From an uncultured Alphaproteobacteria bacterium (GTDB lineage Bacteria > Pseudomonadota > Alphaproteobacteria > HIMB59 > GCA-002718135), in NCBI GenBank assembly GCA_902560675.1, contig CACEMP010000005.1, forward strand, positions 8,253-72,252: 64,000 nt of DNA. The letters are read 5' to 3'. Numbering within the stretch: position 1 is the first letter of the stretch; the number at the start of each line of letters is the position of its first letter. Of the stretch, positions 21,253 through 39,976 are shown one piece after another. The notes beneath the pieces were generated by a model that was not told where the DNA came from, made no database searches, and saw only the letters and a program-made list of their open reading frames with translations. Position numbers and translations under genes: made by a program.

Positions 21253-21265
21253 GATCTTAGTAATT

Positions 21266-23104: not shown

Positions 23105-23172
23105 TTATATTTATTAATTAAATTTAATACTATTTGTTGATAGTTTCCGAATTATAGTTATAAGAGATATCA

Positions 23173-23223
23173 CGTTCATCATTCTTTTAGAGTGACGGAA
23201 GTAGACGAAAGTCGAAGGAACGC
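23173..23223 (+). promoter_or_regulatory. glutamine riboswitch aptamer (glnA RNA motif), copy 1 in the amt-2 leader
   Basis: CGUUCA-[UCAUUC/GAGUGA hairpin, with U-A replaced by U.G relative to leader 1]-CGGAAGUAG-ACGAAAGU-CGAAGGAACGC. Confidence 0.85.
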
Positions 23224-23240
23224 ATGCAAAGTTATTAAAT

Positions 23241-23291
23241 CGTTCAATTTGTATTTTGCAAATCGGAAGTAGGTATAACCGAAGGAACGCG
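23241..23291 (+). promoter_or_regulatory. glutamine riboswitch aptamer (glnA RNA motif), copy 2 in the amt-2 leader
   Basis: CGUUCA-[AUUUGU/GCAAAU hairpin]-CGGAAGUAG-GUAUAAC-CGAAGGAACGCG. A C-G pair in leader 1 is U-A here, which is a compensatory change. Confidence 0.85.
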
Positions 23292-23304
23292 GATATTATT
23301 AATT

Positions 23305-23381: not shown

Positions 23382-24668
23382 ATGTATAAAAAATTTTTTA
23401 GTCTTTTTACAGTATTCTCTTTTATTTTGCTGCTAAGCTCATCTGTGAGAGCAGAGGTTGATGCAGAAGTAGCATATATATTTAATACATTTTCTTTTTT
23501 AGTTTGTGGTTTTTTAGTCATGTGGATGGCTGCTGGTTTTCTTTTTTTAGAATCCGGTCTTGTAACAACCAGAAGTGTATCAACTATTGCTGCTAAAAAT
23601 ATAGGAAAGTTTGCAATAGTTTCAATTGTTTTCTATTTAATTGGATATAACCTTGGATATTCTGTTCCTGAAGGAGGCTATTTTGGTACACCATCAATAT
23701 GGACTGATAAAACATCTATGGAAACAGGTTACTCAGATGCTTCAGACTGGTTTTTTCAAGCCTTATTTGTTTGTGCTACTGTGTCTATTGTATCAGGTGC
23801 TGTAGCAGAGCGAATAAAAATTTGGCCTTTTTTTACTTTTGCAGCAGTTCTTGGAGGAGTGATTTATCCAATTCAAATGGGTTGGGAATGGGGCGGAGGA
23901 TGGTTAGACGCCCTAGGATTTGCAGATTTTGCTGGCTCAACATTAGTTCACGCTTGTGGAGGATCTGCTGCTTTAGCTGGAGTAATTCTTTTAGGTCCAA
24001 GACTTGGAAGATTTAGTGCAAGTGGCGAACCAGCCAATATGGCTCCATTTGCTCCATCATCAATTCCATTAGTTACTTTAGGAACATTCATTTTATGGAT
24101 GGGCTGGTATGGTTTTAATGGTGGATCACAACTTGCATTAGGCTCTTATGAAGATGCAACTGCAATGTCAAAAATTTTCATGAATACCCAACTCGCAGCT
24201 TGTGGTGGATGTATGGCTGGTGCTGCAATAACAAGATTGATCGGTGGAAAAACTGATATTGTAATGATGCTCAATGGAGCGCTCGCAGGTTTAGTCTCTA
24301 TAACAGCAGAACCATTAATGCCGAGTCCATTATTAGCTATTGGAATTGGATTTGTTGGAGGAATCATTATGTATTATGGAACTAACTTTTTAAATTCATT
24401 AAAGTTAGATGATGTTGTTGGCGCAATCCCTGTACATATGTTTGCAGGAATTTGGGGTACATTAATTGTTCCTTTAACTAATCCAGATGCATCATTCTCA
24501 ATCCAATTACTTGGTGTTGCATCAGTTTGTATATTCGTTTTTGTTTTATCATATATTGCTATATATTTAATAAAAATGATTATGGGGTTAAGAATCAGTG
24601 AGGAAGCTGAAAAACTTGGTACTGATAAGGCTGAGGTTGGAGTAGTAGCTTATTCAATTAGAGATTAA
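23382..24668 (+). CDS. amt: ammonium transporter (Amt family), paralogue 2
   Basis: 428 aa with signal peptide '...VRA/EVD', colinear with paralogue 1. By eye roughly two-thirds of residues are identical. Confidence 0.93.
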   Translation: MYKKFFSLFTVFSFILLLSSSVRAEVDAEVAYIFNTFSFLVCGFLVMWMAAGFLFLESGLVTTRSVSTIAAKNIGKFAIVSIVFYLIGYNLGYSVPEGGYFGTPSIWTDKTSMETGYSDASDWFFQALFVCATVSIVSGAVAERIKIWPFFTFAAVLGGVIYPIQMGWEWGGGWLDALGFADFAGSTLVHACGGSAALAGVILLGPRLGRFSASGEPANMAPFAPSSIPLVTLGTFILWMGWYGFNGGSQLALGSYEDATAMSKIFMNTQLAACGGCMAGAAITRLIGGKTDIVMMLNGALAGLVSITAEPLMPSPLLAIGIGFVGGIIMYYGTNFLNSLKLDDVVGAIPVHMFAGIWGTLIVPLTNPDASFSIQLLGVASVCIFVFVLSYIAIYLIKMIMGLRISEEAEKLGTDKAEVGVVAYSIRD

Positions 24669-25524: not shown

Positions 25525-27576
25525 ATGAAAAAAGCATTTAATTTATCAAAAATACTACTTGTTTCATTAATAGCCTTATTTTTACTAGTAGTTACCACAC
25601 CAGTTCTGTCTTTATCAAGTGACTGGGTAATTAATGATAAATCGAAAGTTAGATTAATATCGCCAAAAACTACGATAGATAATATGAAACAAATTGTTAT
25701 TGGATTAGAATATCAACTTGAGCCTCAATGGAAAACTTATTGGAAATCTCCTGGTGGAGGAGGTTTTCCTCAATCAATATTATGGAATGAATCTGATAAT
25801 GTTGAAGATATAAAAATTGATTGGCCAACACCTAAAGAGTTTGAAATTCTTGGACTTACCTCGTTAGGTTACGAAGAAAAAGTAATTTTTCCACTCAATG
25901 TAAAATTAAAAAATAAAAATAAAGTAGCTAATATAAATTTGAATATTAATTTTCTTGTATGCAAACACATTTGTATACCAGGTAATGCAAATTTATTTTT
26001 AGAAATCAAGCCTGGTAAGGGCAAATATACAGAATTTTACTACGAAATTGAAAAAAGTAAATCTAGTCTTGCTATAGAAAATATAAACATTAGTCCAATA
26101 GAAAAATTAGATATCTCGGTAGTTAAAAATTTAGAAGAAACAGAAATACAAATCATCGCTGAGTCTTTAAAAAATTTTCAAAATACAAATATTTTTTTAC
26201 ATACACCTTTTGGTTTACCTGTTTTAAGTCCAATTAATATTTATTCTATTGATCAAAAAAAAATTAACTCAAGCTTTAAATTTAAATCTGATCAATTTTC
26301 AAAAAAAATTTTTCCAATTGAAGTAATTATATTTGACAAAAACCATAATTTTAAATTTGTTAAAAGTATTTTCATTAATGACAGATTTTCTCAAACCAAC
26401 TACTCAATATTTTATATTCTACTTATATCAATCTTAGGTGGTTTTATATTAAATTTAATGCCATGTGTTTTCCCAGTCTTATCTATTAAGTTACTATCTG
26501 TTTTAAATAATAAAGCTTCAAATATAAGACTAAGTTTTTTATATACTGCTTTTGGAATTATTACATCTTTCTTAATATTAGCTGTCTTTTTTGTATCACT
26601 TAAACAAGTAGGAGTATCAATTGCGTGGGGCATGCAATTTCAAGAACCTTATTTTCTAATTTTTATGTTATTTGTATTAACTATTTTTTGTTTAAATACT
26701 TTAGGTCTTTTTGATATTCAATTACCTAAATTTTTAAATAACAATAATCTTTTAAATTTTGGTGAAGGTGTTTTTACTAAAAGTTTTTTTAATGGTTTTT
26801 TTGCAACATTATTAGCAACACCTTGTACAGCACCTTTTGTTGGCTCTGCAGTTACTATAGCTTTTACACAAACCTCAATATTATTTTTTATAATTTTTTT
26901 ATTTCTGGGTATCGGAATGAGTATACCTTATATATTAGTTTCAATAATACCAAACTCAATTTCTCTTTTACCTAAAACTGGAAAATGGGTATTATATGTG
27001 AAATATTTTTTATCTATTTTGCTAGCTGCAACTATAGCTTGGATCTTAAGTATTTTAAATAATTTTTATAATGAGTTTTTTATTATTATATTCATATTCA
27101 TCGTCTTTGTCTTAATAATATCTTATCGCTATAGTTTTTACAAATTTACTTCATCAATATTTGCTCTTTTTGTTTTACTTTCAATTCCATTTATAAACTT
27201 TTTTGAACAGAAAGATAAAATAAGATATTTTGAAGACTGGGAAGATTTTAATGTTATTAATATTGAAAGTTTGATAAAAAACAACGAAATTTTGTTTGTA
27301 GATGTAACTGCAGATTGGTGTGCAACATGCCAATTTAACAAACTAAATGTTTTAGATAAAGAAAATATAATTAAATTATTTAAAGATAACAATGTTAAAT
27401 TAATTAGGGCTGATTGGACAAAGCCTGACATAAATATAGATAACTTTTTAAAAAAATTTGATAAATTTGGAATTCCATTCAATGTTTTCTTTTCAAAAAA
27501 ATATCCAGAAGGTATTATAATGTCTGAAATATTGACAGAAAAACAAATTAAAAAATCAATTGAAAACTTAAAATGA
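25525..27576 (+). CDS. DsbD/ScsB-type thiol:disulfide reductase (N-terminal periplasmic domain + CcdA-like membrane core + C-terminal thioredoxin)
   Basis: 683 aa with a signal peptide, 'VCKHICIPG', membrane cysteines 'MPCVFPV' and 'TPCTAPF', and a C-terminal 'WCATCQ' thioredoxin motif. Confidence 0.85.
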   Translation: MKKAFNLSKILLVSLIALFLLVVTTPVLSLSSDWVINDKSKVRLISPKTTIDNMKQIVIGLEYQLEPQWKTYWKSPGGGGFPQSILWNESDNVEDIKIDWPTPKEFEILGLTSLGYEEKVIFPLNVKLKNKNKVANINLNINFLVCKHICIPGNANLFLEIKPGKGKYTEFYYEIEKSKSSLAIENINISPIEKLDISVVKNLEETEIQIIAESLKNFQNTNIFLHTPFGLPVLSPINIYSIDQKKINSSFKFKSDQFSKKIFPIEVIIFDKNHNFKFVKSIFINDRFSQTNYSIFYILLISILGGFILNLMPCVFPVLSIKLLSVLNNKASNIRLSFLYTAFGIITSFLILAVFFVSLKQVGVSIAWGMQFQEPYFLIFMLFVLTIFCLNTLGLFDIQLPKFLNNNNLLNFGEGVFTKSFFNGFFATLLATPCTAPFVGSAVTIAFTQTSILFFIIFLFLGIGMSIPYILVSIIPNSISLLPKTGKWVLYVKYFLSILLAATIAWILSILNNFYNEFFIIIFIFIVFVLIISYRYSFYKFTSSIFALFVLLSIPFINFFEQKDKIRYFEDWEDFNVINIESLIKNNEILFVDVTADWCATCQFNKLNVLDKENIIKLFKDNNVKLIRADWTKPDINIDNFLKKFDKFGIPFNVFFSKKYPEGIIMSEILTEKQIKKSIENLK

Positions 27577-28043
27577 CATCATATGTTCCAGACATTAAAG
27601 TTCCAATTATAAAAAAAGGTATTTCAGAAATACATTCTTTATATAATGAATTTAAAAACAAGAAAATTGTATTATTTGGAATTCCTGGTGCTTTTACACC
27701 AACTTGTTCTGAAGAGCATTTCCCAGAATACGTAAAACTATATGATAAGATAATCTCAAAAGGTATTGATGACATATATTGTATCTCAGTAAATGATAGA
27801 TATGTCATGAAATCTTGGTTGATTAGCTATTCTGATGATCATAATATTATAGGTATTGCAGATGGAAATTCTGATATAACAAAACATTTTAATTTAATTG
27901 CTGATAAGACAAAAAATTATATGGGATTTAGAAGCGCCCGATTTTCTATGATAATATCAGATAATATGCTCGTAAAATTAAATATTGAAGAAACTAGTGA
28001 GCTCAAAGTGAGTACTGCAGAAAACATATTAAATTATTTGTAA
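27573..28043 (+). CDS. Prx5-type peroxiredoxin
   Basis: 156 aa with 'PGAFTPTCS'. An ATGA overlap joins it to the DsbD-like gene. Confidence 0.88.
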   Translation: MTSYVPDIKVPIIKKGISEIHSLYNEFKNKKIVLFGIPGAFTPTCSEEHFPEYVKLYDKIISKGIDDIYCISVNDRYVMKSWLISYSDDHNIIGIADGNSDITKHFNLIADKTKNYMGFRSARFSMIISDNMLVKLNIEETSELKVSTAENILNYL

Positions 28044-28052: not shown

Positions 28053-29291
28053 TTACTGTAAACTTTCTTCTATTCTAATTAATTCATTCCATTTTGAAAT
28101 TCTCTCACCTCTTGAGAAAGAGCCCACTTTAATCATATCACATTGCCAAGCTACTGCAAAATGACTTAAAAAATTTTCTTCTGTGTCTCCAGACCTTGCT
28201 GATAAAATTGTTTTTATATTGTTAGTTCTAGCTAATTTAATTGTTTCTAATGTCTCTGAGACAGTTCCACATTGATTGATTTTTACAATAATTCCATCAA
28301 TAGCCTTTTTGTTTATTGCATTATTTAATAAATCTAAGTTTGTACAAACTAAGTCATCACCAATAACTTCAACATTATTCTCAAATTTAGTTTTCAAATT
28401 GATAAATGAGTTTATATCATTTTCTTGATATGGATCTTCAATTAAACTTACATTAAAATCATTTATTAATTTTCCAAATATCCTCGTCATTGCTGACGTA
28501 TCATACTTTTTATCATAAAGTGAATAAATTTCATTCATATAAAAATTTGAAGCTGCAACATCAATTGAAATACCAATTTCTTTAGTTGGGTCTAATTTAT
28601 TTTCAACTAGAGCTTCATTTATAATTTCACAAATTTGAAAATGATCTAAATTATGAGGAAAAAAACCACCTTCATCGGAATGCCCAAAAAATTTATTATT
28701 TTTGATTAACTTCTTTTTAACTAAGCTAATTACACTACAGACTACATTAAAGTACTCCTCATAAGAGATATCTTGCTTTGGGTATACTAAGAAATCCTGA
28801 AAGCTATTTTTATTACCTGCATGTGCTCCTCCTCCAAATATTTGGATTTCAGGTTTAGGAATATTAAGAACATTAGAATTAGAATGATATCTAAAAGCTG
28901 GTACCTTATTTAAATTACTAGCACACAAATAATTTGCTATTGAAAGCGCAGTTGTTACATTTCCCCCAATATTTTTTTTTTGATTTGTTTTATCAATATT
29001 ATTTAGAATCTCATCAAACCCATCTTGATCCTCACAAGATAATCCTATTAATTGAGGAGCAATTATTTTATTTATTTTTGCTAATGCAGTTTTAATATCC
29101 TTACCATTAAACATTTCATCATTATCTCTGATTTCTACAGCTTCATTTGCACCAGTCGAAGCTCCAGATGGACTAATAGCTTTTCCAAATGAGCCATTTT
29201 CTGTAGATATAACAACTTCAACAGTTGGATTTCCTCTAGAGTCAAAAACCCTCCTAGATTTAATAAATTTTATTTTAGAATTATTTTTCAT
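28053..29291 (-). CDS. enolase-family protein, divergent paralogue with substituted active-site residues
   Basis: 412 aa. It keeps 'SRGNPTVEV', 'PSGASTG', 'DVAAS', 'IEDP', 'GDDL', 'KINQCGT' and 'KVGSFSRGERISKWNELIRIEE'. However it has 'QDF' where enolase has QEF, and 'SARSGDT' where enolase has SHRSGET. Confidence 0.75.
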   Translation of the reverse strand: MKNNSKIKFIKSRRVFDSRGNPTVEVVISTENGSFGKAISPSGASTGANEAVEIRDNDEMFNGKDIKTALAKINKIIAPQLIGLSCEDQDGFDEILNNIDKTNQKKNIGGNVTTALSIANYLCASNLNKVPAFRYHSNSNVLNIPKPEIQIFGGGAHAGNKNSFQDFLVYPKQDISYEEYFNVVCSVISLVKKKLIKNNKFFGHSDEGGFFPHNLDHFQICEIINEALVENKLDPTKEIGISIDVAASNFYMNEIYSLYDKKYDTSAMTRIFGKLINDFNVSLIEDPYQENDINSFINLKTKFENNVEVIGDDLVCTNLDLLNNAINKKAIDGIIVKINQCGTVSETLETIKLARTNNIKTILSARSGDTEENFLSHFAVAWQCDMIKVGSFSRGERISKWNELIRIEESLQ

Positions 29292-30252
29292 TAATTATAC
29301 TAACAATATCATTTAAATGTAATATTTTACTATTTATTATTTTAAACGATTTTTCTCTAATGACATTCTTTAGTTTATCTGAGATAATATATTCTACAGG
29401 TGATTTACCATCTACTCTAGCTAACAACATTATTGGCGTCATATTAAAAATTCTAATTAAGTAATTCTTTTTATCAATTTTACTTAAACTATTTAAATAT
29501 TGCTCATAAAATAATTTATATGCTTTTAAAAACTTACTCTTTTCTGATTTAAAATAAATACTTTTAATTATTAAATGATTTGAAAAAAAAACCAAATCAA
29601 AAACTGGATCTCCATAATTACAACATTCCGCATCTAAATAAATTATTTTATTTTTGTTAATTAAAATATTTTTTGGACTAAAGTCACCATGTACTAAAGT
29701 ACTAGAGAAATATTTATAATCTCTATTTATTTTTTCTACGATTTTTTTAAGATTAGGATAAACTCTTGCCACTTCATTAAAATATGGATCAAGTCTTAAA
29801 TCATAAAAATTAGTATTATTTTTTTTAAATATTTTTTTTGTTTTTTCATTACTACTTAAAAGATGTATATCAAATAAATTTCTACTTATAGATTTTATTG
29901 CATTGAAGCTGATTTTTTTTTGAAAGTACAACTCTTTTAAAGTTTTAAATTTTTTATCATCAAAATATTCCATTACTACATATTTTTTCTCATCATTATA
30001 CTCAAATGTTTCAGGAATATTCTCAATTAATATTTTTTTACAGTGTTTAAGCCATAAGAATTCATAATAAAGTCTATTTTGATCGACTATCCATTCTTTT
30101 TTTACTAATAATTTTCTAAGAGATCTTTTAACGCAGAAAACCTTTTTTTTAGTAACTACTTTATATACTTCTGATGAAACACCTCCTTCAAGTTTTTTAT
30201 ATTTTAAAATTTTTTTTTGGTTTACTGAATCTAGCCAAAGGGCTTTGCTCAT
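29281..30252 (-). CDS. APH/choline-kinase-fold small-molecule kinase (substrate unknown)
   Basis: 323 aa with a Gly-rich 'GGVSSEVYKV', 'FCVKR' lysine, catalytic loop 'LVHGDFSPKNILI' and 'YLDAECCNYGDPVFDL'. An 11-nt overlap joins it to the enolase-like gene. Confidence 0.75.
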   Translation of the reverse strand: MSKALWLDSVNQKKILKYKKLEGGVSSEVYKVVTKKKVFCVKRSLRKLLVKKEWIVDQNRLYYEFLWLKHCKKILIENIPETFEYNDEKKYVVMEYFDDKKFKTLKELYFQKKISFNAIKSISRNLFDIHLLSSNEKTKKIFKKNNTNFYDLRLDPYFNEVARVYPNLKKIVEKINRDYKYFSSTLVHGDFSPKNILINKNKIIYLDAECCNYGDPVFDLVFFSNHLIIKSIYFKSEKSKFLKAYKLFYEQYLNSLSKIDKKNYLIRIFNMTPIMLLARVDGKSPVEYIISDKLKNVIREKSFKIINSKILHLNDIVSIINEK

Positions 30253-30258
30253 TTTTTT

Positions 30259-31239
30259 TTAATTTTTTCTTTTCTGAATCAATGCATAAATTGTTACAGC
30301 TATTGTTATCATTAGACCATTAATAAACTGAACGTAAAAACCTGATAAACCAAGTGCTACTATACCAGATTCTAAAGATCCAATAATAAGTACACCAATA
30401 AAAGTTCCATAAACTGTTCCTTTGCCACCAAAAACAGACGTTCCACCTACAAATACTGCTGCTAGCGTTGTTAACATCAATCCAGAACCTTGAGTTGGCC
30501 AAAAGTATAACATTTCATACATAGTAAAAATCCCAGCTAATGCTGAAAAAAATCCAAGTTGTACAAAAGCAATTATTTTTACTCTATCAACATCAATTCC
30601 CATCATTTGCGCACTTGCTTTATTATCTCCAACAAAGTGAATGTGATTACCAAATTTATGATAGCGATATACCCATTGCATTAATCCAGTAAGTATAACA
30701 AACCAAATAAATTGAGCTGGAATAGTATCAAATAATTTATCAACGAATATTGTGTGATGCCATGTTCCGTCTGCCTCATCAACTATTGCTATACCGCTTC
30801 CTTGTGAGATTACATTTACTAAACCTCTCCAAAAGAATAATGTTCCAATTGTAGCTACGATTGAAGGAATTCCTATTTTTGTAACTAACAAACCATTTAC
30901 TAACCCTGCAAACATACCTAATGCAGTAGCTAGAGCAAATGATATGAAAAAATTTCCGTCTGTGGAAGTTAACAACATTCCAAAAGTCAGAGATGTTATT
31001 CCTACTATAGATGGAAATGATAAATCTATCTCACCAAGAGTAACAACAAAAGTAGCTGAAATTGCTATGATACCAAAGAAAGGCATTGATTGCATAAAAG
31101 CTCTGTATATTGGAAATCTTGTAAACACATGAGTCGCTCCAAAAAAGTAAATTAAAAAAAGTACAATTGCAATTATTGTAATACTAATTTCTAATCGATG
31201 AGTTTTAACAAAATAACTATTTAATATTCCACTCAACAT
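30259..31239 (-). CDS. sugar ABC transporter permease (CUT2/RbsC-FrcC type)
   Basis: 326 aa polytopic protein with 'GEIDLS' and 'GGTSVFGGKGTV' blocks. Confidence 0.85.
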   Translation of the reverse strand: MLSGILNSYFVKTHRLEISITIIAIVLFLIYFFGATHVFTRFPIYRAFMQSMPFFGIIAISATFVVTLGEIDLSFPSIVGITSLTFGMLLTSTDGNFFISFALATALGMFAGLVNGLLVTKIGIPSIVATIGTLFFWRGLVNVISQGSGIAIVDEADGTWHHTIFVDKLFDTIPAQFIWFVILTGLMQWVYRYHKFGNHIHFVGDNKASAQMMGIDVDRVKIIAFVQLGFFSALAGIFTMYEMLYFWPTQGSGLMLTTLAAVFVGGTSVFGGKGTVYGTFIGVLIIGSLESGIVALGLSGFYVQFINGLMITIAVTIYALIQKRKN

Positions 31240-32007
31240 TTATGCTTCAACTTTAATTTTTCCTGATTCATGTAATTGAATCATTTTCTTAACTAATTCT
31301 TCTCTAGATATTTCATTTTTTAAAAATTCACCTACAACTTCTCCTCTATCTAAAATAATAAATCTATCTGCAGCTCCATAAACATGAATTATATTATGAT
31401 CGATAAATATAGCTGACTTATTTTCATTTTTTAAACCTTTGACGAAGTTTAATACTTTTTCAGTTTCTTGAATAGATAAACCCATAGTAGGCTCATCTAA
31501 TACAATTAAATCTGAATTGAAATACAATGATCTTCCAAAGGCAACACCTTGTTTTTCACCACCAGATAAACCCATAACTTGAGAGTCGACAGTGATTGCT
31601 TTTGAAGTAAAACCTATATAGTTCCTTAATATTTTTTCTGCTTCTTTTCGTTGTTGTTTAATGTTTAAAAAACCTAAAGAATTTGTAATTTCTCTTCCAG
31701 CAAAAATATTTCTATAAAGTTCTTGTTGATCACATAAAGCTCTTTCTTGATACACTGCTTCAATACCCATTTTTCTTGATTGTGAAACTGATTTAATCTC
31801 AACTTCACTTTCTTTAAAAAAAATTTTCCCAGAGTTTGGTCTATGTACGCCCGTAATAACCTTAATAAGTGTTGATTTCCCAGCTCCATTATCCCCAATT
31901 AAGGCGACAACTTCTCCTTTATTTATTGTGATGTTTACATCTTTAAGTACTTTGACATTGCCAAAGTTTTTATAAATATTTTCCAGTTTTAAAAGCTGTT
32001 CAGACAT
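31240..32007 (-). CDS. sugar ABC transporter ATP-binding protein with a single NBD (FrcA-like)
   Basis: Walker A 'GDNGAGKST', signature 'LSGGEKQ' and Walker B 'LIVLDEPT'. The track starts at TTG 32019, but the ATG at 32007 (MSEQLL...) avoids the hairpin. Confidence 0.85.
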   Translation of the reverse strand: MSEQLLKLENIYKNFGNVKVLKDVNITINKGEVVALIGDNGAGKSTLIKVITGVHRPNSGKIFFKESEVEIKSVSQSRKMGIEAVYQERALCDQQELYRNIFAGREITNSLGFLNIKQQRKEAEKILRNYIGFTSKAITVDSQVMGLSGGEKQGVAFGRSLYFNSDLIVLDEPTMGLSIQETEKVLNFVKGLKNENKSAIFIDHNIIHVYGAADRFIILDRGEVVGEFLKNEISREELVKKMIQLHESGKIKVEA

Positions 32008-32013
32008 AAATGA

Positions 32014-32042
32014 TTTCAAGCCTGCTATTTGCAGGCTTGAAA
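32014..32042 (-). terminator. intercistronic stem-loop between the SBP and ATPase genes (partial terminator, mRNA stabiliser or RBS occluder)
   Basis: TTTCAAGCCTGC-TATTT-GCAGGCTTGAAA, a 12-bp perfect stem that ends 7 nt before the ATPase ATG on the minus strand. Confidence 0.5.
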
Positions 32043-32051
32043 AATAAAATT

Positions 32052-33032
32052 TTATCTTATTTGAACAGCAGCTAATGGAGCAATTGCTTCCACATTCTCT
32101 GCAGTTACAAAAGCTGCACCAGTATCCATAGCAAGTCCTGCCATTCCATATTTAGTACTTAAGAATAGTTGTACAATTGGAATGTATCCTTGAATGAAAG
32201 GTTGTTGATCAATTACTACATCTATGTAGCCAGAATTTATTCCATCTACAATTGGAGCAGATAAATCAAAACCAGCACCACATACTTCTTCAGTACCATG
32301 ACCAGCTGCTTTCATGTAAGTTGGTAAACTTGCAGTTAAACCACCATGGTCTGTAATTGCCATTTTTATATCTGGGTTTGCACTGTAAGTTGAAACATAC
32401 ATTGGTGTACCTTGAGAGGCATCAGAGTTAACATTATCTGGGATTTCTTGATAAACAACTTCAACACCCATATCTTCAACACCTGCTATCGCACCCTTTG
32501 TTCTTTCACCTCTATTTGGCATACTTGCAAGTCCCCAAATAAATGCTTTATCTCCAGCTTGTAGGCCACATACTTCAACAGCTTTTTTTCCTAAGTTATA
32601 ACCAGCATCAAATAGATCTGCACCTGCATAACCAAAACCTTCAGTTTTGTACTCTGCTTCTAAATCAGGTAGAGGTGTATTCATTGTTGTGATTACAATA
32701 CCCATTTCTCTTGCCTCTTTAATAATTGGTCTCATAGCTTCATCGCCTGGAAAACCATATATTGCAATTCCATCAGGCTGCAGTGCAACTGCTTCCTTGA
32801 ATTGTTTAATCATTATTTCTGAGTTCCATTGTGACCAGTAGTAATCAACATCACATCCTGTATGTTCAGCAGCTGCAACTGCTCCGTTATAAACAATTGT
32901 TCCAAAGGGTCCACCTTCTGGTCCACCTGGAAAAAATATGAATTTTTTGTCACAAGAATAGTCATTCTTTGCAATTGCTGAACCTGCAGTAAATGCGAAG
33001 CATACAGCAATAAAAGTTAAAAGTTTTTTCAT
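32052..33032 (-). CDS. periplasmic sugar-binding protein (type I PBP)
   Basis: 326 aa with signal peptide '...GSAIA/K'. A strong RBS (GGGGGA) is present, and the composition is noticeably richer in G+C and Ala/Gly than the neighbours. Confidence 0.85.
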   Translation of the reverse strand: MKKLLTFIAVCFAFTAGSAIAKNDYSCDKKFIFFPGGPEGGPFGTIVYNGAVAAAEHTGCDVDYYWSQWNSEIMIKQFKEAVALQPDGIAIYGFPGDEAMRPIIKEAREMGIVITTMNTPLPDLEAEYKTEGFGYAGADLFDAGYNLGKKAVEVCGLQAGDKAFIWGLASMPNRGERTKGAIAGVEDMGVEVVYQEIPDNVNSDASQGTPMYVSTYSANPDIKMAITDHGGLTASLPTYMKAAGHGTEEVCGAGFDLSAPIVDGINSGYIDVVIDQQPFIQGYIPIVQLFLSTKYGMAGLAMDTGAAFVTAENVEAIAPLAAVQIR

Positions 33033-33177
33033 TATTCCCCCAATAATTTAAAATTGTGAGTAAATTATATGTAAAAATCTAAATATTACAAACTTAATTT
33101 AATAAATATTTTGTTATAGTAAGTTACTTGAATATTTTCTTATTTAGAATTAATATTAAATCTACATTCAAAATCTT

Positions 33178-34014
33178 ATGAAAAGAAAAAAATTGACAGT
33201 ATATGATTACTTAAGATCAAAAGGCAAAAGACAACTTAGTGCATTGTTTGTCCATAATGCTGATGAAGCCAGAGCTGCTGAGGAAGCAGAGATCGATATC
33301 ATTTGTACTTCACATGATTATCCTCAATTCGGAATATACAATTCATTTGAAGAATTAAAAAGAATTCGTGAAGCTGCTCCAAATTGTTTGATGCAAACAG
33401 GTGGAGCAATTACACCAGCTTCTGAATATGAAGCTTTAAAGGTATGTCATAAATATTTAGAGATTGGCACAGATGTTATTTATGGAGGTACATGGAGTTA
33501 TAAATGGATCAAAGCTTTAAGAGAAGAAAATGTACCAATAAATAGCCACGTTGGTCTAGTACCTGGTAAAGCAACATGGATTGGTGGTTTTAGAGCAATC
33601 GGTAAAACAGCTGATGAGGCTATTGGAGTATTGAGGCATACACTAGAATTACAGGAGGCTGGAGCTATCGGAGTGGAACTAGAAGTTGTACCTCCAAAGG
33701 TAGCAGAGATAATTACAAAAAAAGTCGACATTATAACATTATCTATGGGTAGTGGATCGGGTTGTGATGGACAATATCTATTTGCAAATGATGTTCTTGG
33801 TTACACTGGTTATAACGGTGGTCATATCCCAAGACATGCTAGAATTTACAAAGATTTTAAAAAAGAGTATGAAAGATTACAGGAAGAAAGAATTCATGCT
33901 TTTAGAGAATATCATAAAGATACAGTTGAAAAAAAATTTAATGATCCAAAAATAACTGTTGATATCGATAGTAGTGAGTTTGAAAATTTTCTAAAATTAG
34001 CAAATAAATATTGA
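33178..34014 (+). CDS. PanB-like protein (ketopantoate hydroxymethyltransferase fold), apparently degenerate at the metal site
   Basis: 278 aa. It is colinear with PanB blocks: 'AAPNCL', 'SHVGLVP', 'GAIGVELEVVP', 'SMGSGSGCDGQYLFANDVLGYT' and 'GHIPRHA'. The VGDS and 'ADLPF' Asp positions read 'CTSH' and 'QTGGAI'. This alignment is from memory. Confidence 0.55.
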   Translation: MKRKKLTVYDYLRSKGKRQLSALFVHNADEARAAEEAEIDIICTSHDYPQFGIYNSFEELKRIREAAPNCLMQTGGAITPASEYEALKVCHKYLEIGTDVIYGGTWSYKWIKALREENVPINSHVGLVPGKATWIGGFRAIGKTADEAIGVLRHTLELQEAGAIGVELEVVPPKVAEIITKKVDIITLSMGSGSGCDGQYLFANDVLGYTGYNGGHIPRHARIYKDFKKEYERLQEERIHAFREYHKDTVEKKFNDPKITVDIDSSEFENFLKLANKY

Positions 34015-34070
34015 CCAAGATTTAAAAAAAACTGTTTTATTATTAAATAATTTTATTATAATTGTTAAAA

Positions 34071-35051
34071 ATGGACGTAAATTTAAATACTTGGTATCGT
34101 TGTACCATCGATAAAAAAGAGTTTAAAAAACTTTGTAAGAAATCTGACTTCCAAGGTTTTAAGCACATGATAATTTATTTTTCTGCTTTAATATTTTTTG
34201 GATATTTAGCTTACGCAACATGGGGTACTTGGTGGTGTGTATTATTTTTTTTAATCTATGGAAATATTTGGGGATGTGCTGATGCTATTTGGCACGAAAC
34301 TGGTCACAGAACAGCATTTAAAAGTAAATTCTGGAATGATTTTTTCTATTATATTGCAAGTTTTATGGATAATTTTGAACCTATAAGATGGAGGCATTCA
34401 CATTTTCATCATCACTCACATACTATTTTTACAGATCCATTAGATTTTGAAATACATGTTCAAAAGCCAACTGATTTAATTATGTTTTTTTCTTGGTATA
34501 TCCCTTTTTCAGGCTTCATATTTTTTACAAAATCTCTTCATTGGGAGACTTTAAAACATGCATTTGGAATAACCACAGATGTTATGAGAGTATGTATTCC
34601 AAAAAGTGAAATATCAAAATGTAGGTGGTCTGCTAGAAGCCATGTTTTTATTTGGATTGCAACCATTATTGTTTCGATTTATCTTCAATCATGGTTACCA
34701 ATGCTATTTATAGTTCTACCAAACTTTTATGGTAAAACACTAATCTCACTTTTTGGTTTAACACAACATGCTGGTCTTCAAGAAAATATTAAGGACCATC
34801 GTTATACAACAAGAACAGTAAAACTTAATCCAATTTTTAGTTTCCTTTATTGGCAAATGGAATACCACATTGAACACCATATGTTTCCACAAGTACCATC
34901 TTACAATTTACCAAAATTACATGAAATGTTGAAAGGTCAAATGCCACCAGCAAGAGTTGGATTATGGGGTGCGTATAAAGAAATAATACCTGCACTTTTT
35001 AAACAAGCTAAAAATCCTGAATATAAAATTCCTCTATCAATCCCTGCGTGA
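34071..35051 (+). CDS. membrane fatty-acid-desaturase/hydroxylase-family di-iron oxygenase (MocD/AlkB-like His boxes)
   Basis: Three His boxes are present: 'HETGHR', 'HSHFHHHSH' and 'HIEHHMFP'. There are four or more TM segments. The track ORF starts at TTG 34062; the ATG is at 34071. Confidence 0.75.
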   Translation: MDVNLNTWYRCTIDKKEFKKLCKKSDFQGFKHMIIYFSALIFFGYLAYATWGTWWCVLFFLIYGNIWGCADAIWHETGHRTAFKSKFWNDFFYYIASFMDNFEPIRWRHSHFHHHSHTIFTDPLDFEIHVQKPTDLIMFFSWYIPFSGFIFFTKSLHWETLKHAFGITTDVMRVCIPKSEISKCRWSARSHVFIWIATIIVSIYLQSWLPMLFIVLPNFYGKTLISLFGLTQHAGLQENIKDHRYTTRTVKLNPIFSFLYWQMEYHIEHHMFPQVPSYNLPKLHEMLKGQMPPARVGLWGAYKEIIPALFKQAKNPEYKIPLSIPA

Positions 35052-35944
35052 AACAAGCAGAATTATTTTTAGATTGCAAAAATATATTAGGTGAAGGAAT
35101 AACTTGGTCACAATTTGATCAAACTCTTTATTGGTTGGATATTCCAATGCCCTCAAAACTTTATAAGTATTCATTCGAAAAAAATAAAACAACAGAATTT
35201 GAAATGCCTGAAATGATAACTGCATTAGCTGTTCGACAAAACAATGATATTCTAATTGCTTCACATAATGGTATAAATAATTTTTCAATAAAAGAAAAAA
35301 AATTCAATCAACTCTTTAAATTGGAACCTGAAAAAAATCAAAACAGATGTAATGATGGTGCAGCAGATTTTCTTGGAAATTTTTGGGTTGGTACTATGCA
35401 AAATAATATTGCACCAGATGGAACTAGTATAGATATTAAGGAAAACTCAGGCGCGATATATTCTATAGATAAAAACTTTAATTTAATTAAACATGAAGAT
35501 AACATTGGTGTATCAAATACATTTGCATGGAGTCCAAATAACGATAAATTTTATACCACTGACACCTTAACTGGGGTTATTGATGTTTATGACTATGATT
35601 ATAACAATTTGAAAATTTTAAACAAAAAAGAATTTGCTAAATTTGACAGAGGTTATCCTGATGGATCAACAGTTGACTCAGAAGGTTTTTTATGGAGTTG
35701 TCGTTGGGATGGATCATGTGTAGTTAGATTCAATCCTAATGGAGATGTTGATACAGTTGTAGAAGTTCCTGTACCAAATGTTACAAGTTGTACATTTGGA
35801 GGTTCTGACCTTAAAACTTTGTTTATAACTACTGCACGAATGGCAACATCTAACGACAATCTAAAAAAATACCCATTAGCTGGAGGAATTTTTGCATATA
35901 ATTCTCCAGTGAAAGGTAAACTGGATTTTAAATTCGGTTCTTAA
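35048..35944 (+). CDS. SMP-30/gluconolactonase/LRE-family sugar lactonase
   Basis: 298 aa with 'LGEGITW', 'RCNDGAAD', 'SNTFAWSP' and 'PDGSTVDSEGFLW'. A GTG start overlaps the upstream stop (GTGA). Confidence 0.85.
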   Translation: MKQAELFLDCKNILGEGITWSQFDQTLYWLDIPMPSKLYKYSFEKNKTTEFEMPEMITALAVRQNNDILIASHNGINNFSIKEKKFNQLFKLEPEKNQNRCNDGAADFLGNFWVGTMQNNIAPDGTSIDIKENSGAIYSIDKNFNLIKHEDNIGVSNTFAWSPNNDKFYTTDTLTGVIDVYDYDYNNLKILNKKEFAKFDRGYPDGSTVDSEGFLWSCRWDGSCVVRFNPNGDVDTVVEVPVPNVTSCTFGGSDLKTLFITTARMATSNDNLKKYPLAGGIFAYNSPVKGKLDFKFGS

Positions 35945-35946: not shown

Positions 35947-36744
35947 ATGAAAAAAAGATTTCAAGATAAAGTTGTAATAGTAACTGGAGCTGGCTCAGGT
36001 ATAGGTGAAAGAACAGCAGAGAGATTTGCAGAAGAAGGAGCAAAAGTTACCATAGCTGAGTTAGATGAGAAAGCTGGGAAAAGAGTTCAAGAAAATATAA
36101 ATAAAACTGGGGCTAATTCTTTGTTTATTAAAACAGATGTCGCAATCTATGAATCTGTTAATCAAATGGTTGAAAAAACTATAAGTAGTTTAGGATCACC
36201 AGATATTCTTATTAACAATGCAGGAATAAATGTTTTTAGTGAGCCTCTTAAAATGCCTGATTCAGAATGGAAAAGAGCTTTTTCTGTGGATTTAGATGGT
36301 GTCTGGTATGGATGTAAAGCAGTTTTACCACACATGTTAGATAAATCTAAAGGTTCAATTGTAAATGTTTCATCTGTTCACGGTTTTCAAATAATACCTA
36401 ATTGTTTTCCATACCCTATAGCAAAACATGGAGTTATAGGTTTAACACGAGCTTTAGCAGTTGATTATGCAGCAAAGGGAATTAAAATAAATTGTATTTC
36501 TCCTGGTTATACTGAAACACCAATTTTAGATAGATTTTTTAATACTAAACCTAATCCAGCTGAAGCAAGAAAAGAAGCTGAATACAGACAACCAATAAGA
36601 AGAATGGGTACTACAACAGAAATAGCAAACGCAATTTTATTTATGTCTTCAGACGAATGTAATTTTATGATTGGTGCTAATATTATTGTAGATGGAGGAA
36701 TTACACTTAAGATACATGAAAATGATGATACCGGAGCTGATTAA
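35947..36744 (+). CDS. SDR family oxidoreductase (candidate sugar 1-dehydrogenase)
   Basis: 265 aa with 'TGAGSGIG', 'NNAG' and the catalytic 'YPIAKHG' (YxxxK). Confidence 0.85.
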   Translation: MKKRFQDKVVIVTGAGSGIGERTAERFAEEGAKVTIAELDEKAGKRVQENINKTGANSLFIKTDVAIYESVNQMVEKTISSLGSPDILINNAGINVFSEPLKMPDSEWKRAFSVDLDGVWYGCKAVLPHMLDKSKGSIVNVSSVHGFQIIPNCFPYPIAKHGVIGLTRALAVDYAAKGIKINCISPGYTETPILDRFFNTKPNPAEARKEAEYRQPIRRMGTTTEIANAILFMSSDECNFMIGANIIVDGGITLKIHENDDTGAD

Positions 36745-36747: not shown

Positions 36748-37902
36748 GTGAAAGTTGAAAACATTCAACTTTACTATCTTTCAATGCCTGAAATTCTAGA
36801 CGAGGCTGATGGAAGTCAAGATGCGCTTGTTGTTAAAGTAGAAGCTGGAGGTTATGAAGGTTGGGGTGAGTGTGAAGCTTCACCATTAACATCTATTTCT
36901 AATTTTATATGTCCAAAATCTCATTCAGCTGCTAATCCAATAAGAAGTTCTATTGTTGGTGAAAATATAAATGATTTAAGTGATATAAAAAAAATTATCA
37001 CCAGAGTTAAAAATAGATCTTTAATGATTGCTCAAACACCACATACATTTTCTGGTATAGAGGTTGCCTTACTAGATCTTTTATCAAAAAAAGAAAGTTG
37101 CCCAATTTATTCATTATTAGGTATGAATAAAACAATTCCTAAAATTGCATATGCTTCAGTACTCTTTGGTAAAACACCTCAGGAAACTTACAATATCGCT
37201 AAAAATCTTATTAACAAAAATTTTAAGGCAATAAAGTTTGGATGGGAAAACTTTGGTTTAAATATTAAAACTGATGAAAACCATCTTGTAGCTGCAAGAG
37301 ATGCAATTAAAAATGAAGCTGAATTAATGATAGATGTAGGTGCCATCTGGGAAACAAATATAGATGAAGCAGAAAAAAGAAAAAAAATTTTACAAGATGC
37401 AAAAATCACATGGTTAGAGGAACCATTTTATTCAGATGCTTTTTATGAGTATAGCAAGCTTTCCGAAATAACTAAACTTCCATTAGCTGGAGGTGAATCA
37501 TGTCATTCTATTGAATCAGCAAAAAACATGATAAGATATGGAAAAGTTAAATTTATTCAAATTGATGCTGGCATTGCTGGCGGAATAATAGCTGGAAAAG
37601 AAATATGTGATTTTGCAGAAAAAAATAATGTGCAATATGTCAATCATACATTTACATCCCATTTACAACTTTCATCATCTTTACAGCCTTATGTTAGTTC
37701 TACAAAAAGTAAATTTGCCGAATTTCCTCAGCAATTAAAATCTTTAGCATGGGATTTAACAGAAAATCATATTAGCATGGATGAAGATGGTTTTATAAAC
37801 GTTCCGGAGGATGTTGGTCATGGAATAAAAATTAATCAAAGTGCTTTAGATCAATACATTGTTGATGTAGAAATATTTGTTAATAAGAAAAAAATTTTTT
37901 AA
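36748..37902 (+). CDS. enolase-superfamily (mandelate racemase/muconate lactonizing) acid-sugar dehydratase
   Basis: 384 aa with 'GWGECEA', 'MIDVGA', 'WLEEP' and 'IQIDA' metal-ligand blocks. GTG start. Confidence 0.75.
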   Translation: MKVENIQLYYLSMPEILDEADGSQDALVVKVEAGGYEGWGECEASPLTSISNFICPKSHSAANPIRSSIVGENINDLSDIKKIITRVKNRSLMIAQTPHTFSGIEVALLDLLSKKESCPIYSLLGMNKTIPKIAYASVLFGKTPQETYNIAKNLINKNFKAIKFGWENFGLNIKTDENHLVAARDAIKNEAELMIDVGAIWETNIDEAEKRKKILQDAKITWLEEPFYSDAFYEYSKLSEITKLPLAGGESCHSIESAKNMIRYGKVKFIQIDAGIAGGIIAGKEICDFAEKNNVQYVNHTFTSHLQLSSSLQPYVSSTKSKFAEFPQQLKSLAWDLTENHISMDEDGFINVPEDVGHGIKINQSALDQYIVDVEIFVNKKKIF

Positions 37903-37904: not shown

Positions 37905-39080
37905 ATGAAAATAATTGATATTAAAACAACAATTGTCAACGCGGAAATGCGTAATTGGGTATTTGTAAAAGTTATTACAGATAAAGACCTATATGGCTGG
38001 GGTGAGGCAACAGTAGAATGGAAAACAAGAGCCGTAATAGGAGCAATTGAAGATTTAAAGCCTTTATTAATTGGAAAAGATCCAAGAGATATAAAACAAA
38101 ATTTTCAAATAATGACAAAACATGGTTTCTGGAAACTTGGCATTATTGGAATGTCAGCTGTCAGTGGTATTGAACACGCACTTTGGGATATTCTTGGTAA
38201 AAGTTTAAATGTACCTGTCTGGCAATTACTTGGTGGAAAAGTTCGTAACAAAATAAAAATTTATACTCATTTAGGAATGGGAGATATGAATGCAGTTTAT
38301 AAAGATACAATGGAGATAAATAAATTAAATGAACATGCATTAGCCCTTTTAGAAAAAGGTTATAAAGCATTTAAGGTTGTATTTATTCCTTTCACACATC
38401 ATACAAATTCACTAAAAAATTTAGACAAGGTAAATCAATTAATGTCATCATTGCGAAATGTTGTTGGCAATGAAATTGATATTATGGTTGATTTCCATGG
38501 AAGATGTGCCTCTGGTAAATCTGCTATTCAATACATAAAGGAGCTAGAGTCGTATAACCCTCTTTTTGTAGAGGAACCTATTTTACCTGGTGATAATAAA
38601 ACTTTACTTCAGGTTAAAAATTCAATTAATTGTCCACTTGCTACAGGAGAGAGATTAATAGGACATCAAGAATTTGAAGAAATCATTTCAAATCGCATTG
38701 TTGATATAATTCAGCCAGATTTAAATCATTGCGGTGGTTTATTAGAAGCTAAATACATTGCAGCAGCAGCTTCGATTGCAAATATAGGAGTTGCTCCTCA
38801 TAATCCAAACGGTCCAATCGCAGGTGCAGCTGCGTTACACTTTGCATGTTCAACCACAAATCATATAATTCAAGAAGTAATGGATAAATCTGTTCCTTGG
38901 TATGATGATGTTATTTCATCAACACCTGTTGAAAGAGAAAAAGACCATTGGAAAATACCGACTAGAGCAGGTTTAGGAATTGAAGTAAATGAAAAAGAAG
39001 CAGAAAAATATCCATTTAAACAAGAAATAATTCCTACAACTGACGCCTATCTCGAAGATGGAACAGTAGTTGATTGGTGA
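37905..39080 (+). CDS. galactonate-dehydratase-like enolase-superfamily dehydratase
   Basis: 391 aa with 'NWVFVKVITD..GWGEAT', 'MVDFHGR', 'FVEEP', 'IIQPDLNHCGG' and 'APHNP'. Confidence 0.8.
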   Translation: MKIIDIKTTIVNAEMRNWVFVKVITDKDLYGWGEATVEWKTRAVIGAIEDLKPLLIGKDPRDIKQNFQIMTKHGFWKLGIIGMSAVSGIEHALWDILGKSLNVPVWQLLGGKVRNKIKIYTHLGMGDMNAVYKDTMEINKLNEHALALLEKGYKAFKVVFIPFTHHTNSLKNLDKVNQLMSSLRNVVGNEIDIMVDFHGRCASGKSAIQYIKELESYNPLFVEEPILPGDNKTLLQVKNSINCPLATGERLIGHQEFEEIISNRIVDIIQPDLNHCGGLLEAKYIAAAASIANIGVAPHNPNGPIAGAAALHFACSTTNHIIQEVMDKSVPWYDDVISSTPVEREKDHWKIPTRAGLGIEVNEKEAEKYPFKQEIIPTTDAYLEDGTVVDW

Positions 39081-39976
39081 TCAATATAAATAAAATAGAA
39101 GGAATCTTTCCAATCCTTTACACTTTTTTTAATAAAAATAATTCCATTGACTTTAAATTAATGGAAGATCAAATTAAATTAATTTTCGAACAACGCTGTC
39201 ATGGAATAGCAGCTCTTGGTTTGGCTACTGAAGTTAACAAATTATCATTTAAGGAAAAAATAAAAATTATAGAATTATTATCAGATAATACTCCAGCAAA
39301 GAAACCAAAAGCAATAACAATACAATCTAAAAATTACAAAGAATATATAAAATTAATTGAAATTTCAAAATCAAACAAAATAGATTGGTTAATACTCCAA
39401 CCAATGATAAAAAAAAATACTACAGACAAAGATTGTTATAATTTTTTTAAAAAAATAATTCCAACAACTTCAGGAACTTTGACAGGCATCCAAAATGCTA
39501 AGGAATATATAGGTGTAGGATTGACAACAAATCAAATAAATAAATTATACAAACGTTTTAACAATTTTAGAGCAATAAAAGGCGAAGCTTCATCTTATTT
39601 AATGCAAAAGGAATTAATGGAACTTCCAAAAGACCTTACTGTGTTTAATGGTCGAGGAGGGCAAGAGATTGTTGATAATTTAATAATTGGTTGTAAGGGT
39701 ATTGTTCCTTGCTTAGATGGATCTGATAAGTTTGTAAAAATATTTCAATTTTTTAAGCAAAAAAAATTAATTAATGCTGAAAATGAATATAGGAATATGC
39801 TTCCAAATATTGTTTTCATTATGCAATCAATTGACTCTTTAGTATGTTACGGTAAGAGAGTATGTGCATTTAGAATGGGAGTAAAAAATGTTTATGATCG
39901 TAAACCTTTTCTTAAACCAACTGATTTTGGAATTAAGAAATCAAAAAATATTGCAAAATCTTTAGGATATTTCTAA
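39074..39976 (+). CDS. DHDPS/NAL-family class I aldolase (candidate 2-keto-3-deoxy-sugar-acid aldolase)
   Basis: 300 aa with 'GIFPILYTFF..N.IDF', 'GIAALGLATE' and the Schiff-base region 'FRAIKGEASS'. A TTG/GTG start overlaps the upstream stop. Confidence 0.6.
   Translation: MVININKIEGIFPILYTFFNKNNSIDFKLMEDQIKLIFEQRCHGIAALGLATEVNKLSFKEKIKIIELLSDNTPAKKPKAITIQSKNYKEYIKLIEISKSNKIDWLILQPMIKKNTTDKDCYNFFKKIIPTTSGTLTGIQNAKEYIGVGLTTNQINKLYKRFNNFRAIKGEASSYLMQKELMELPKDLTVFNGRGGQEIVDNLIIGCKGIVPCLDGSDKFVKIFQFFKQKKLINAENEYRNMLPNIVFIMQSIDSLVCYGKRVCAFRMGVKNVYDRKPFLKPTDFGIKKSKNIAKSLGYF

Follow-up and report, generated by a model that had tools for sequence, protein, structure and literature searches.

Why does an uncultured alphaproteobacterium of the HIMB59 lineage carry, behind a set of sugar transporter genes, an enolase-like gene that overlaps a kinase gene and departs from canonical enolase at two positions of the active site? 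The genes lie on a stretch of 64,000 nucleotides (assembly GCA_902560675.1, contig CACEMP010000005.1, positions 8,253 to 72,252), which as a whole is called the window in the following and has a G+C content of about 30%. Five minus-strand genes follow one another closely: a periplasmic solute-binding protein, an ATP-binding cassette (ABC) ATPase, a permease, a kinase of the APH superfamily and the enolase-like protein (Table 1). A hairpin lies between the first two, the ATPase and permease genes abut with a gap of 0 nt, permease and kinase genes are 6 nt apart, and the kinase gene overlaps the enolase-like gene by 11 nt; an earlier note on this DNA had described just this arrangement, and open reading frames (ORFs) and stem-loop agree with it. 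Our data support the conclusion that the last gene encodes a true enolase-fold paralogue, in which the C3 side of the active site has been rewired. Kinase and enolase-like gene form a conserved and apparently undescribed two-gene module, for which we favour, at a probability of about one half, a two-step reaction from a (2R)-2-hydroxy acid via a 2-phospho acid to an enol phosphate.

An enolase fold with an altered C3 side

The enolase-like protein reaches 387 bits with the model TIGR01060, above the curated enolase threshold of 300, matches the Pfam families Enolase_N and Enolase_C with E-values of 4e-58 and 7e-42, and is about 40% identical to the enolase of Campylobacter. Its AlphaFold model (predicted local distance difference test, pLDDT, of 90) matches solved enolases, including that of M. 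tuberculosis, with a template modelling (TM) score of 0.94.

The protein was aligned to solved enolases and to 34 canonical enolases, and positions are given here in yeast numbering. Retained are the metal ligands Asp246, Glu295, Asp320 and Ser39, the residues that bind carboxylate and phosphate (Gln167, Lys396, Arg374, Ser375 and His159), and both the base Lys345 and the acid Glu211, which are K337 and E207 in the window protein. At the two positions that assist the departure of the C3 hydroxyl, Glu168 and His373, the protein has Asp and Ala instead: the canonical FQEF reads FQDF (Asp166 in the window protein), and SHRSGET reads SARSGDT (Ala365 in the window protein). The earlier note had recognised from the sequence an enolase fold that keeps its Mg ligands and general base and is changed from QEF to QDF and from SHRSGET to SARSGDT; alignment and structural model bear this out, and Glu and His are indeed not conserved.

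In yeast enolase His373 acts beside the C3 hydroxyl. In the canonical reaction the proton at C2 is taken up by Lys345 and the C3 hydroxyl is expelled by Glu211 with the assistance of Glu168, and an E163A variant of M. tuberculosis enolase, which is changed at the equivalent of Glu168, is non-functional (PMC10619443). Given this inactive variant, the replacement of Glu168 by Asp is unlikely to be neutral for a turnover of 2-phosphoglycerate.

A family of Asp/Ala enolases

The window protein is no isolated case. A search of 5.8 billion proteins yielded 85 close relatives with 48-98% identity, and all those that cover the region possess FQDF and SARSGDT; sequences with the canonical FQEF and SHRSGET start only below about 44% identity to the window protein. 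For a comparison of residues, 92 family members, comprising the marine clade and kinase-linked sequences from other phyla, were set against the 34 canonical enolases. Position 168 is Asp in 92 of 92 family members and Glu in 34 of 34 canonical sequences, and position 373 is Ala in 90 of 92 and His in 34 of 34. Glu211 and Lys345 are present in 92 of 92 family members, and Lys396, Arg374, Ser375, His159, Gln167, Asp246, Glu295, Asp320 and Ser39 each in 91 or 92. Further changes are typical of the family: Asn152Gln, Asn155Gly, Gly209Ala/Ser/Cys, Ile349Cys/Ala, Thr397Val, Asp385His, a replacement of Tyr by Trp in KYN, and an aromatic residue in place of Ala215, which is Trp, or Tyr or Phe in the marine clade. 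The pocket has gained no new basic residue, and two acidic residues still stand beside C3. Among 1.84 billion cluster representatives searched, several distinct Asp/Ala subfamilies are present, and in a neighbour-joining tree the Asp/Ala sequences form one large and one small clade, neither of which contains canonical sequences. The Asp/Ala changes define a family, and the recurrence of these substitutions and of the gene pair described below across phyla is far beyond chance.

Positions 14 and 403 are occupied by Arg and Glu in 79 of the 92 family members, compared with Glu/Arg, Glu/Gln or Gln/Arg in canonical enolases. The N-terminal strand and the C-terminal helix of enolase contact each other across the dimer interface, and the charge swap may keep the paralogue from dimerising with the housekeeping enolase, which would fit a co-existence of both in one cell.

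The kinase and its enolase partner

The earlier note had assigned the kinase to the APH type with an intact catalytic loop and metal site, and this holds: the protein has the motifs HGDFSPKN and LDAE..YGDP, which do not vary within the kinase family, and of the profile models only the generic Pfam APH (PF01636) is passed, with 42.6 bits against a gathering score of 23.2. With TIGR01767, the model of the methylthioribose (MTR) kinase MtnK, the protein reaches 50 bits, far from the cut-off of 275. Its AlphaFold model (pLDDT 94) has the MTR kinase 2pyw as best structural match (TM 0.81, 15% identity). The kinase shares with MtnK this fold, the HGDxxxxN loop and the DxE metal site; it differs in its low identity (15-16%) and profile score, in the absence of a methionine-salvage context, and in a private motif, LARVDGKSPVEY, and a set of basic residues (R60, K106, H130, R153, K230, R279 and K283), all invariant in its family. 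It is a protein of MTR-kinase-like fold that belongs to no named family, and none of the known glycerate kinase classes I-III (GarK/GlxK, MOFRL, GLYK) is among its Pfam or NCBIfam matches. The many invariant basic residues hint at an anionic substrate.

One kinase homologue, 39% identical and located on a plasmid of Enterobacter chuandaensis (L093, 8884-9939; L-numbers are our handles for loci outside the window), has no enolase partner. The genes around it, which encode a U32 peptidase, an aminotransferase, a nucleotidyltransferase and an MFS transporter, give it a biosynthesis-like setting, and the homologue probably belongs to another subfamily that serves a different purpose.

When one genome per species was scanned with the kinase alignment, at least 583 kinase relatives were obtained, and the neighbourhoods of the best 80 of these loci were compared, of which 76 are informative and four end too near the gene. 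The enolase-like gene adjoins the kinase gene on the same strand, usually overlapping it, in 65 of the 76 informative loci; in five further loci it is found within 7 kb, and in six there is none. The search for the pair in other genomes that the earlier note had proposed has therefore revealed a strongly conserved unit. Among the 70 enolases near a kinase, 45 have Asp and Ala at both sites and one has Asp and Gly; the rest were incompletely scored by the motif search, and the canonical combination of Glu and His was seen in none of the 70 as far as they were scored. At three loci in Vicinamibacterales kinase and enolase are even joined in one reading frame of about 780-855 amino acids, and two more fused proteins (P0250 and P0326) are found among the cluster representatives.

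Carriers of the pair belong to Alpha-, Beta- and Gammaproteobacteria, Acidobacteria, Actinomycetes, Chloroflexi, Methylomirabilales and haloarchaea, the latter with copies on plasmids. Plasmid-borne copies occur in Rhizobium, Rhodococcus, Paracoccus, Methylobacterium and Haladaptatus, where they presumably co-exist with a chromosomal eno; RefSeq labels the plasmid copies of the Asp/Ala gene 'eno, phosphopyruvate hydratase'. Cultured organisms that carry the pair include Paracoccus seriniphilus (p420573), Rhodococcus opacus PD630 (pRoPD630_1), Yokenella regensburgei and Haladaptatus. The complete genomes of E. coli contain no copy of the pair. A canonical eno is absent from the annotated part of the window (about 24-59 kb), to which the search for it was limited.

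The conserved unit is the pair of kinase and enolase-like gene and not the transporter, because at other loci the pair is accompanied by a lactonase, by a lactonase and a dioxygenase, or by transporters of other types. A chain in which a sugar is imported and then itself phosphorylated, as the earlier note had envisaged, is not supported in that form by this comparison. The note knew of no sugar pathway with this logic, and in the literature we found no paper describing the pair; a review on methionine salvage and a paper on L-threonate 3-dehydrogenase (PMC12994016) are likewise silent.

Partners of the pair and the proposed reaction

What, then, do the two proteins act upon? Most often the pair is accompanied by a D-isomer-specific 2-hydroxyacid dehydrogenase, which ranks first among the Pfam families of 137 operon neighbours. 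It is located within 10 kb in 34 of the 80 loci, directly abuts the pair in about two dozen, and adjoins the kinase gene also in the few loci without an adjacent enolase. The dehydrogenase reaches no curated family cut-off and is about equally distant from phosphoglycerate dehydrogenase and from glyoxylate/hydroxypyruvate reductases, so that it names no substrate. Its linkage nevertheless fits a (2R)-2-hydroxy acid as substrate of the kinase, and since it is the commonest partner, a hydroxy acid made inside the cell is a more likely substrate than the imported sugar itself. Regulators of LacI type are found in nine loci, and the transporters vary between CUT2 ABC, other ABC, TRAP, TTT and MFS types. 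Beyond dehydrogenase, LacI regulators and transporters, clustering of the neighbours in the 80 loci yielded no third conserved gene; two apparent clusters turned out to be artefacts of antisense ORFs in high-GC DNA.

In the reaction that we favour, the kinase would transfer phosphate from ATP to the 2-hydroxyl group of a (2R)-2-hydroxy carboxylic acid bearing a leaving group at C3. To judge from the conserved residues of the enolase-like protein, two Mg ions together with Lys396, Gln167, Arg374, Ser375 and His159 would then bind the carboxylate and the 2-phosphate as in enolase, Lys345 would abstract the C2 proton and Glu211 would expel the C3 substituent, and the product would be an enol phosphate, either phosphoenolpyruvate (PEP) or a PEP homologue. 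In many lineages the D-specific dehydrogenase would set the (2R) configuration, and in the window the sugar importer and the neighbouring oxidative pathway from sugar via lactone to aldonate would feed the module. The intact head-group site suggests that binding of a 2-phospho carboxylate and proton abstraction at C2 have been retained, and the invariance of Glu211 suggests that a group continues to leave from C3. Every fixed change maps to the C3 side or to the closing loop, and for this reason the substrate is expected to differ from 2-phosphoglycerate at C3: given Asp168 and Ala373 and, on this side of the pocket, several further replacements that are hydrophobic or alter residue size, it is probably not plain 2-phosphoglycerate but rather a 2-phospho-2,3-dihydroxy acid with an extra group on C3. 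A 2-phospho acid with a C3 substituent other than OH, as raised in the earlier note, is a possible substrate.

A changed C3 side could also mean that elimination has been abandoned altogether. Lys345 and Glu211 would then act as opposed bases that racemise or epimerise a 2-phospho acid, for instance L- to D-2-phosphoglycerate, or the protein would enolise a 3-oxo-2-phospho acid, with the product passing to housekeeping enzymes. Poyner et al. reportedly found in 1996 that yeast enolase variants at Glu168 and Glu211 exchange the C2 proton and fail in the loss of hydroxide; racemases are common in the enolase superfamily, and genes for flavin mononucleotide-dependent L-2-hydroxyacid oxidases, which stand beside the pair in two marine single-cell genomes, hint that both stereoisomers are handled. 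The invariance of Glu211, the general acid for leaving-group departure, is at odds with this idea, and so is the linked dehydrogenase, which by its family is D-specific, so that the kinase product should already have the canonical configuration at C2. Of all explanations weighed here we give this one the least credit.

Returning to elimination, the neighbours of the pair bear on the length of the substrate. Four related loci have a lactonase gene shortly before the kinase gene within one operon: at L003 and L098 the pair directly follows the lactonase, with a PfkB kinase gene after the pair in L098, and at L002 and L101 only a PhyH dioxygenase gene intervenes between lactonase and kinase. In Woeseia genes of the tetronate pathway adjoin the pair. 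The operon of Yokenella comprises kinase, enolase-like gene, an MFS carboxylate carrier, the dehydrogenase, an MhpD-like hydratase and an HpaI-type aldolase, and on the Haladaptatus plasmid the pair is situated amid four MR/MLE dehydratases, two SDRs and an HpcH aldolase. The substrate candidate that we consider most likely is a four-carbon or other short aldonate, e.g. L-threonate or D-erythronate, in view of the lactonase encoded ahead of the kinase, the tetronate-pathway genes of Woeseia, the aldolases able to cleave 4-hydroxy-2-oxo acids, and a PanB-like gene near the pair in the window; we rank a glycerate with another leaving group below it. Hints of a substrate longer than C3 come from the HpcH-type aldolases (Yokenella, Haladaptatus) and from the PfkB kinases of L098 and Photobacterium. 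On a Rhizobium plasmid a LysR regulator, ppc, the dehydrogenase and the kinase form one operon, with the Asp/Ala 'eno' 5 kb away, and this ppc is a hint of a PEP-type product.

Several observations weigh against the reaction as we propose it. The closest structural relative of the kinase phosphorylates the anomeric hydroxyl of a sugar and not a 2-hydroxy acid. Among solved structures no enolase of the Asp/Ala type was found; the matches at E <= 1e-10 are all named enolase, and two of them, compared by alignment, show the canonical motifs. No dedicated enzyme that would use a PEP homologue is conserved beside the pair. Apart from the dehydrogenase the neighbours vary widely, and a single substrate for the whole family is therefore not assured. 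Moreover, many contexts suit plain D-glycerate equally well, namely those with the hydroxypyruvate-reductase-like dehydrogenase, an aldehyde dehydrogenase, FAH-family enzymes (found with SDRs beside the pair in Rhodococcus and Paracoccus) or ppc.

The last point leads to the main rival explanation, according to which the kinase is a fourth, hitherto unrecognised class of D-glycerate 2-kinase and the enolase-like protein a dedicated isoenzyme converting 2-phosphoglycerate to PEP, so that the pair would close a non-phosphorylative sugar-acid pathway or a hydroxypyruvate pathway. The score above the enolase threshold (387 against 300 bits with TIGR01060), the name 'eno' given to the plasmid copies by RefSeq, and the retention of all metal, carboxylate and phosphate ligands as well as of Lys345 and Glu211 are what one would expect of such an isoenzyme. 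Enzymes of three classic glycerate routes lie nearby, i.e. D-2-hydroxyacid, aldehyde and beta-hydroxyacid dehydrogenases (the last in Woeseia), FAH-type hydrolases and ppc are among the neighbours, and the Yokenella operon resembles the gar operon of E. coli in its layout. On the other hand, an enzyme for 2-phosphoglycerate would have to work without two residues that are invariant in the 34 canonical enolases and replaced in 92 of 92 and 90 of 92 family members, and a canonical enolase that carries E163A has no activity (PMC10619443). That kinase and enolase are fused or translationally coupled points to a private intermediate and not to a central metabolite, the plasmid genes of Rhizobium, Rhodococcus and Paracoccus are presumably held on top of a chromosomal eno, and a lactonase directly upstream of the kinase (L003, L098) is ill-suited to a C3 acid. 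In sum we regard the glycerate explanation as unlikely, yet as the one to be taken most seriously beside our own.

Alternatively, the substrate might be a 3-substituted lactate, namely (R)-sulfolactate, isoserine, 3-chlorolactate or a 3-O-substituted glycerate, that is phosphorylated and then loses its substituent by beta-elimination to give PEP. In the case of sulfolactate this would be the reverse of the phosphosulfolactate synthase reaction, with release of sulfite. The shorter Asp168 and the smaller Ala373 would leave room for a group larger than OH, and PEP as product accounts for the absence of a further conserved enzyme and suits the ppc of Rhizobium. In Photobacterium a PfkB kinase, a class II aldolase and an aldehyde dehydrogenase precede the pair, a layout resembling a sulfoglycolysis that ends in sulfolactate, and the window itself contains a pyridoxal phosphate (PLP) enzyme similar to CuyA/XcbE and an Ldh_2-family dehydrogenase, both below the curated cut-offs (Table 1). 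For sulfolactate, however, one misses any sulfite exporter, sulfite dehydrogenase or other sulfonate gene in the 25 commonest families of the 137 operon neighbours. The pocket likewise speaks against 3-substituted lactates, with no new basic residue and two acidic residues next to C3, and no support for such a route was found in the literature. We consider it improbable.

Relation to known systems and significance

With canonical enolase (EC 4.2.1.11) the paralogue shares the fold, 34-40% identity, the Mg ligands, the binders of carboxylate and phosphate, Lys345 and Glu211; it is set apart by the fixed changes at positions 168 and 373, by its constant linkage or fusion to a kinase and by the charge swap at 14/403. 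The sequence of hydroxy acid, 2-phospho acid and enol phosphate is familiar from glycerate 2-kinase and enolase in the non-phosphorylative Entner-Doudoroff pathway and in glucarate/galactarate degradation, and the neighbours are similar as well (sugar dehydrogenase, lactonase, acid-sugar dehydratases, aldolase). In contrast to those pathways, the kinase here is unrelated to the three glycerate kinase classes and the enolase is a dedicated active-site variant. A precedent for an enolase paralogue acting on another 2-substituted glycerate is PhpH of phosphinothricin biosynthesis, an enolase homologue whose product is carboxyphosphonoenolpyruvate; PhpH differs in being biosynthetic, in belonging to Streptomyces gene clusters and in having no known APH kinase partner. 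Tetronate pathways with DUF1537 kinases also handle L-threonate and D-erythronate, and their genes stand beside the pair in the Woeseia contig. They proceed by oxidation, 4-phosphorylation and decarboxylation to dihydroxyacetone phosphate and include neither a 2-phosphorylation nor an enolase-type step (PMC12994016).

In a wider sense the Asp/Ala proteins, coupled or fused to a kinase of their own, might constitute a large and ancient second functional family within the enolase subgroup, to which only one function has long been ascribed. Its members would dehydrate short sugar acids, for example D-erythronate or L-threonate, a breakdown product of ascorbate, by a 'phosphorylative dehydration'. 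We put this forward tentatively and with more doubt than belief. If it were true, the enol phosphate would give back the ATP invested in the 2-hydroxyl, so that energy would be conserved in the dehydration; a SAR11-like clade of abundant ocean bacteria and many soil bacteria would use a route to central metabolism that is missing from pathway maps because it is hidden under the name 'eno'.

The existence of the family has consequences for annotation: the enolase model passes Asp/Ala proteins, so that hundreds of genomes list a second 'eno' that is probably doing something else, and metabolic reconstructions inherit the wrong label. To enzymology the family would offer a natural enolase active site that has been retuned on the leaving-group side while the rest remained fixed, served by a dedicated kinase that is sometimes part of the same polypeptide. 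Ecologically, a very abundant marine lineage carries the module in a variable sugar-acid island, and the module is also widely distributed among soil Proteobacteria, Acidobacteria, Actinomycetes and haloarchaea; its substrate is likely to be a common environmental hydroxy acid, the turnover of which is currently unaccounted for.

The locus in the window and its surroundings

Table 1. Features of the window and of related loci discussed in the text (positions in the window unless a locus is named).
Feature	Position	Strand	Evidence or remark
Periplasmic solute-binding protein, Peripla_BP_4, CUT2 sugar family	32052-33032	-	Pfam/NCBIfam profiles
12-bp stem-loop between binding-protein and ATPase genes	32014-32042	-	sequence
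ABC ATPase, single ABC_tran domain	31240-32007 (ATG start preferred; ORF list gives TTG 32019)	-	Pfam/NCBIfam
ABC permease, BPD_transp_2, CUT2 sugar type	30259-31239	-	Pfam/NCBIfam
Small-molecule kinase, APH superfamily, 323 amino acids	29281-30252	-	Pfam, AlphaFold model
Enolase-subgroup paralogue, 412 amino acids	28053-29291	-	Pfam, TIGR01060, alignment, AlphaFold model
Divergent intergenic region	33033-33177		promoter-like site 33091-33064 for the minus-strand operon, consensus match only
AhpC-like, DsbD, DUF179 neighbourhood	27573-28043 and 25525-27576		same genes at L001, L002, L099, L100, L101
Divergent PanB-like gene	33178-34014	+	Pfam 121 bits; NCBIfam panB 93 bits, cut-off 207
Membrane di-iron oxygenase-like protein, FA_desaturase family	34062-35051	+	syntenic in L001; PhyH dioxygenase instead in L002, L101
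SMP-30/gluconolactonase-type lactonase	35048-35944	+	profile search, synteny
SDR dehydrogenase	35947-36744	+	syntenic with the pair in L001, L002
Two MR/MLE dehydratases	36748-37902 and 37905-39080	+	syntenic with the pair in L001, L002
DHDPS-family aldolase/dehydratase	39074-39976	+	syntenic with the pair in L001, L002
IlvD/Edd dehydratase	39976-41709	+	syntenic with the pair in L001, L002
PLP enzyme	41735-42784	+	nearest D-cysteate sulfo-lyase CuyA / coenzyme M enzyme XcbE, 267/217 bits, cut-off 450
Ldh_2-family dehydrogenase	53026-54033	+	nearest L-sulfolactate dehydrogenase, 182 bits, cut-off 500
Oxygenase-type genes near the pair	window 34062-35051; L002 8108-9016; L087 11320-12117; L006 16258-17020
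Fused kinase-enolase ORFs, Vicinamibacterales	L013 9962-12304; L019 9902-12265; L071 9707-12274

The three transporter genes have the composition of an Frc-like CUT2 importer, with Peripla_BP_4, BPD_transp_2 and one ABC_tran domain. The binding protein has the rhizopine binding protein as its top NCBIfam match (83 bits, cut-off 420), and its nearest solved relatives bind various sugars at low similarity. Residues 9-247 of the ATPase match positions 1-240 of a profile of about 500, which correspond to the first half of two-domain sugar ATPases. The TTG start of the ORF list falls within the stem-loop, and the L001 orthologue has 255 amino acids; for these reasons ATG 32007, which gives the same length, is probably the true start of the ATPase. 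The stem-loop itself is likely an intercistronic stabiliser or attenuator.

In the SAR11-like loci the pair is always located next to the AhpC/DsbD/DUF179 genes, with differing other companions, and follows the ABC genes not only in the window but also at L001, L099 and L100. The chromosomal site would accordingly be fixed and the sugar-acid island at it variable. We call these loci SAR11-like on the strength of their low G+C, of the marine metagenomes from which they come and of their synteny with contigs from single-cell genomes. The plus-strand operon of the window, from the PanB-like gene and the di-iron oxygenase-like gene through the lactonase to the IlvD/Edd dehydratase, is a standard kit leading from sugar via lactone and aldonate to dehydration.

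A PanB-like gene is found near the pair also at L006 (14725-15588), on an unrelated metagenome contig with a Rieske protein and an FA_desaturase-like gene. Oxygenase-type genes of three families (FA_desaturase, PhyH and FA_hydroxylase) recur beside the pair in marine loci. A second sugar-acid cluster occupies 42774-50234 of the window and comprises an MR/MLE protein similar to L-rhamnonate dehydratase, a fuconolactonase-like amidohydrolase, a RhaS-like binding protein, a two-domain ABC ATPase, two permeases and an SDR. On the other side of the operon, four glutamine riboswitch aptamers (RF01739) are arranged in two tandem pairs on the plus strand (21133-21254 and 23171-23293), each pair just upstream of an ORF resembling an ammonium transporter (21314-22630 and 23382-24668).

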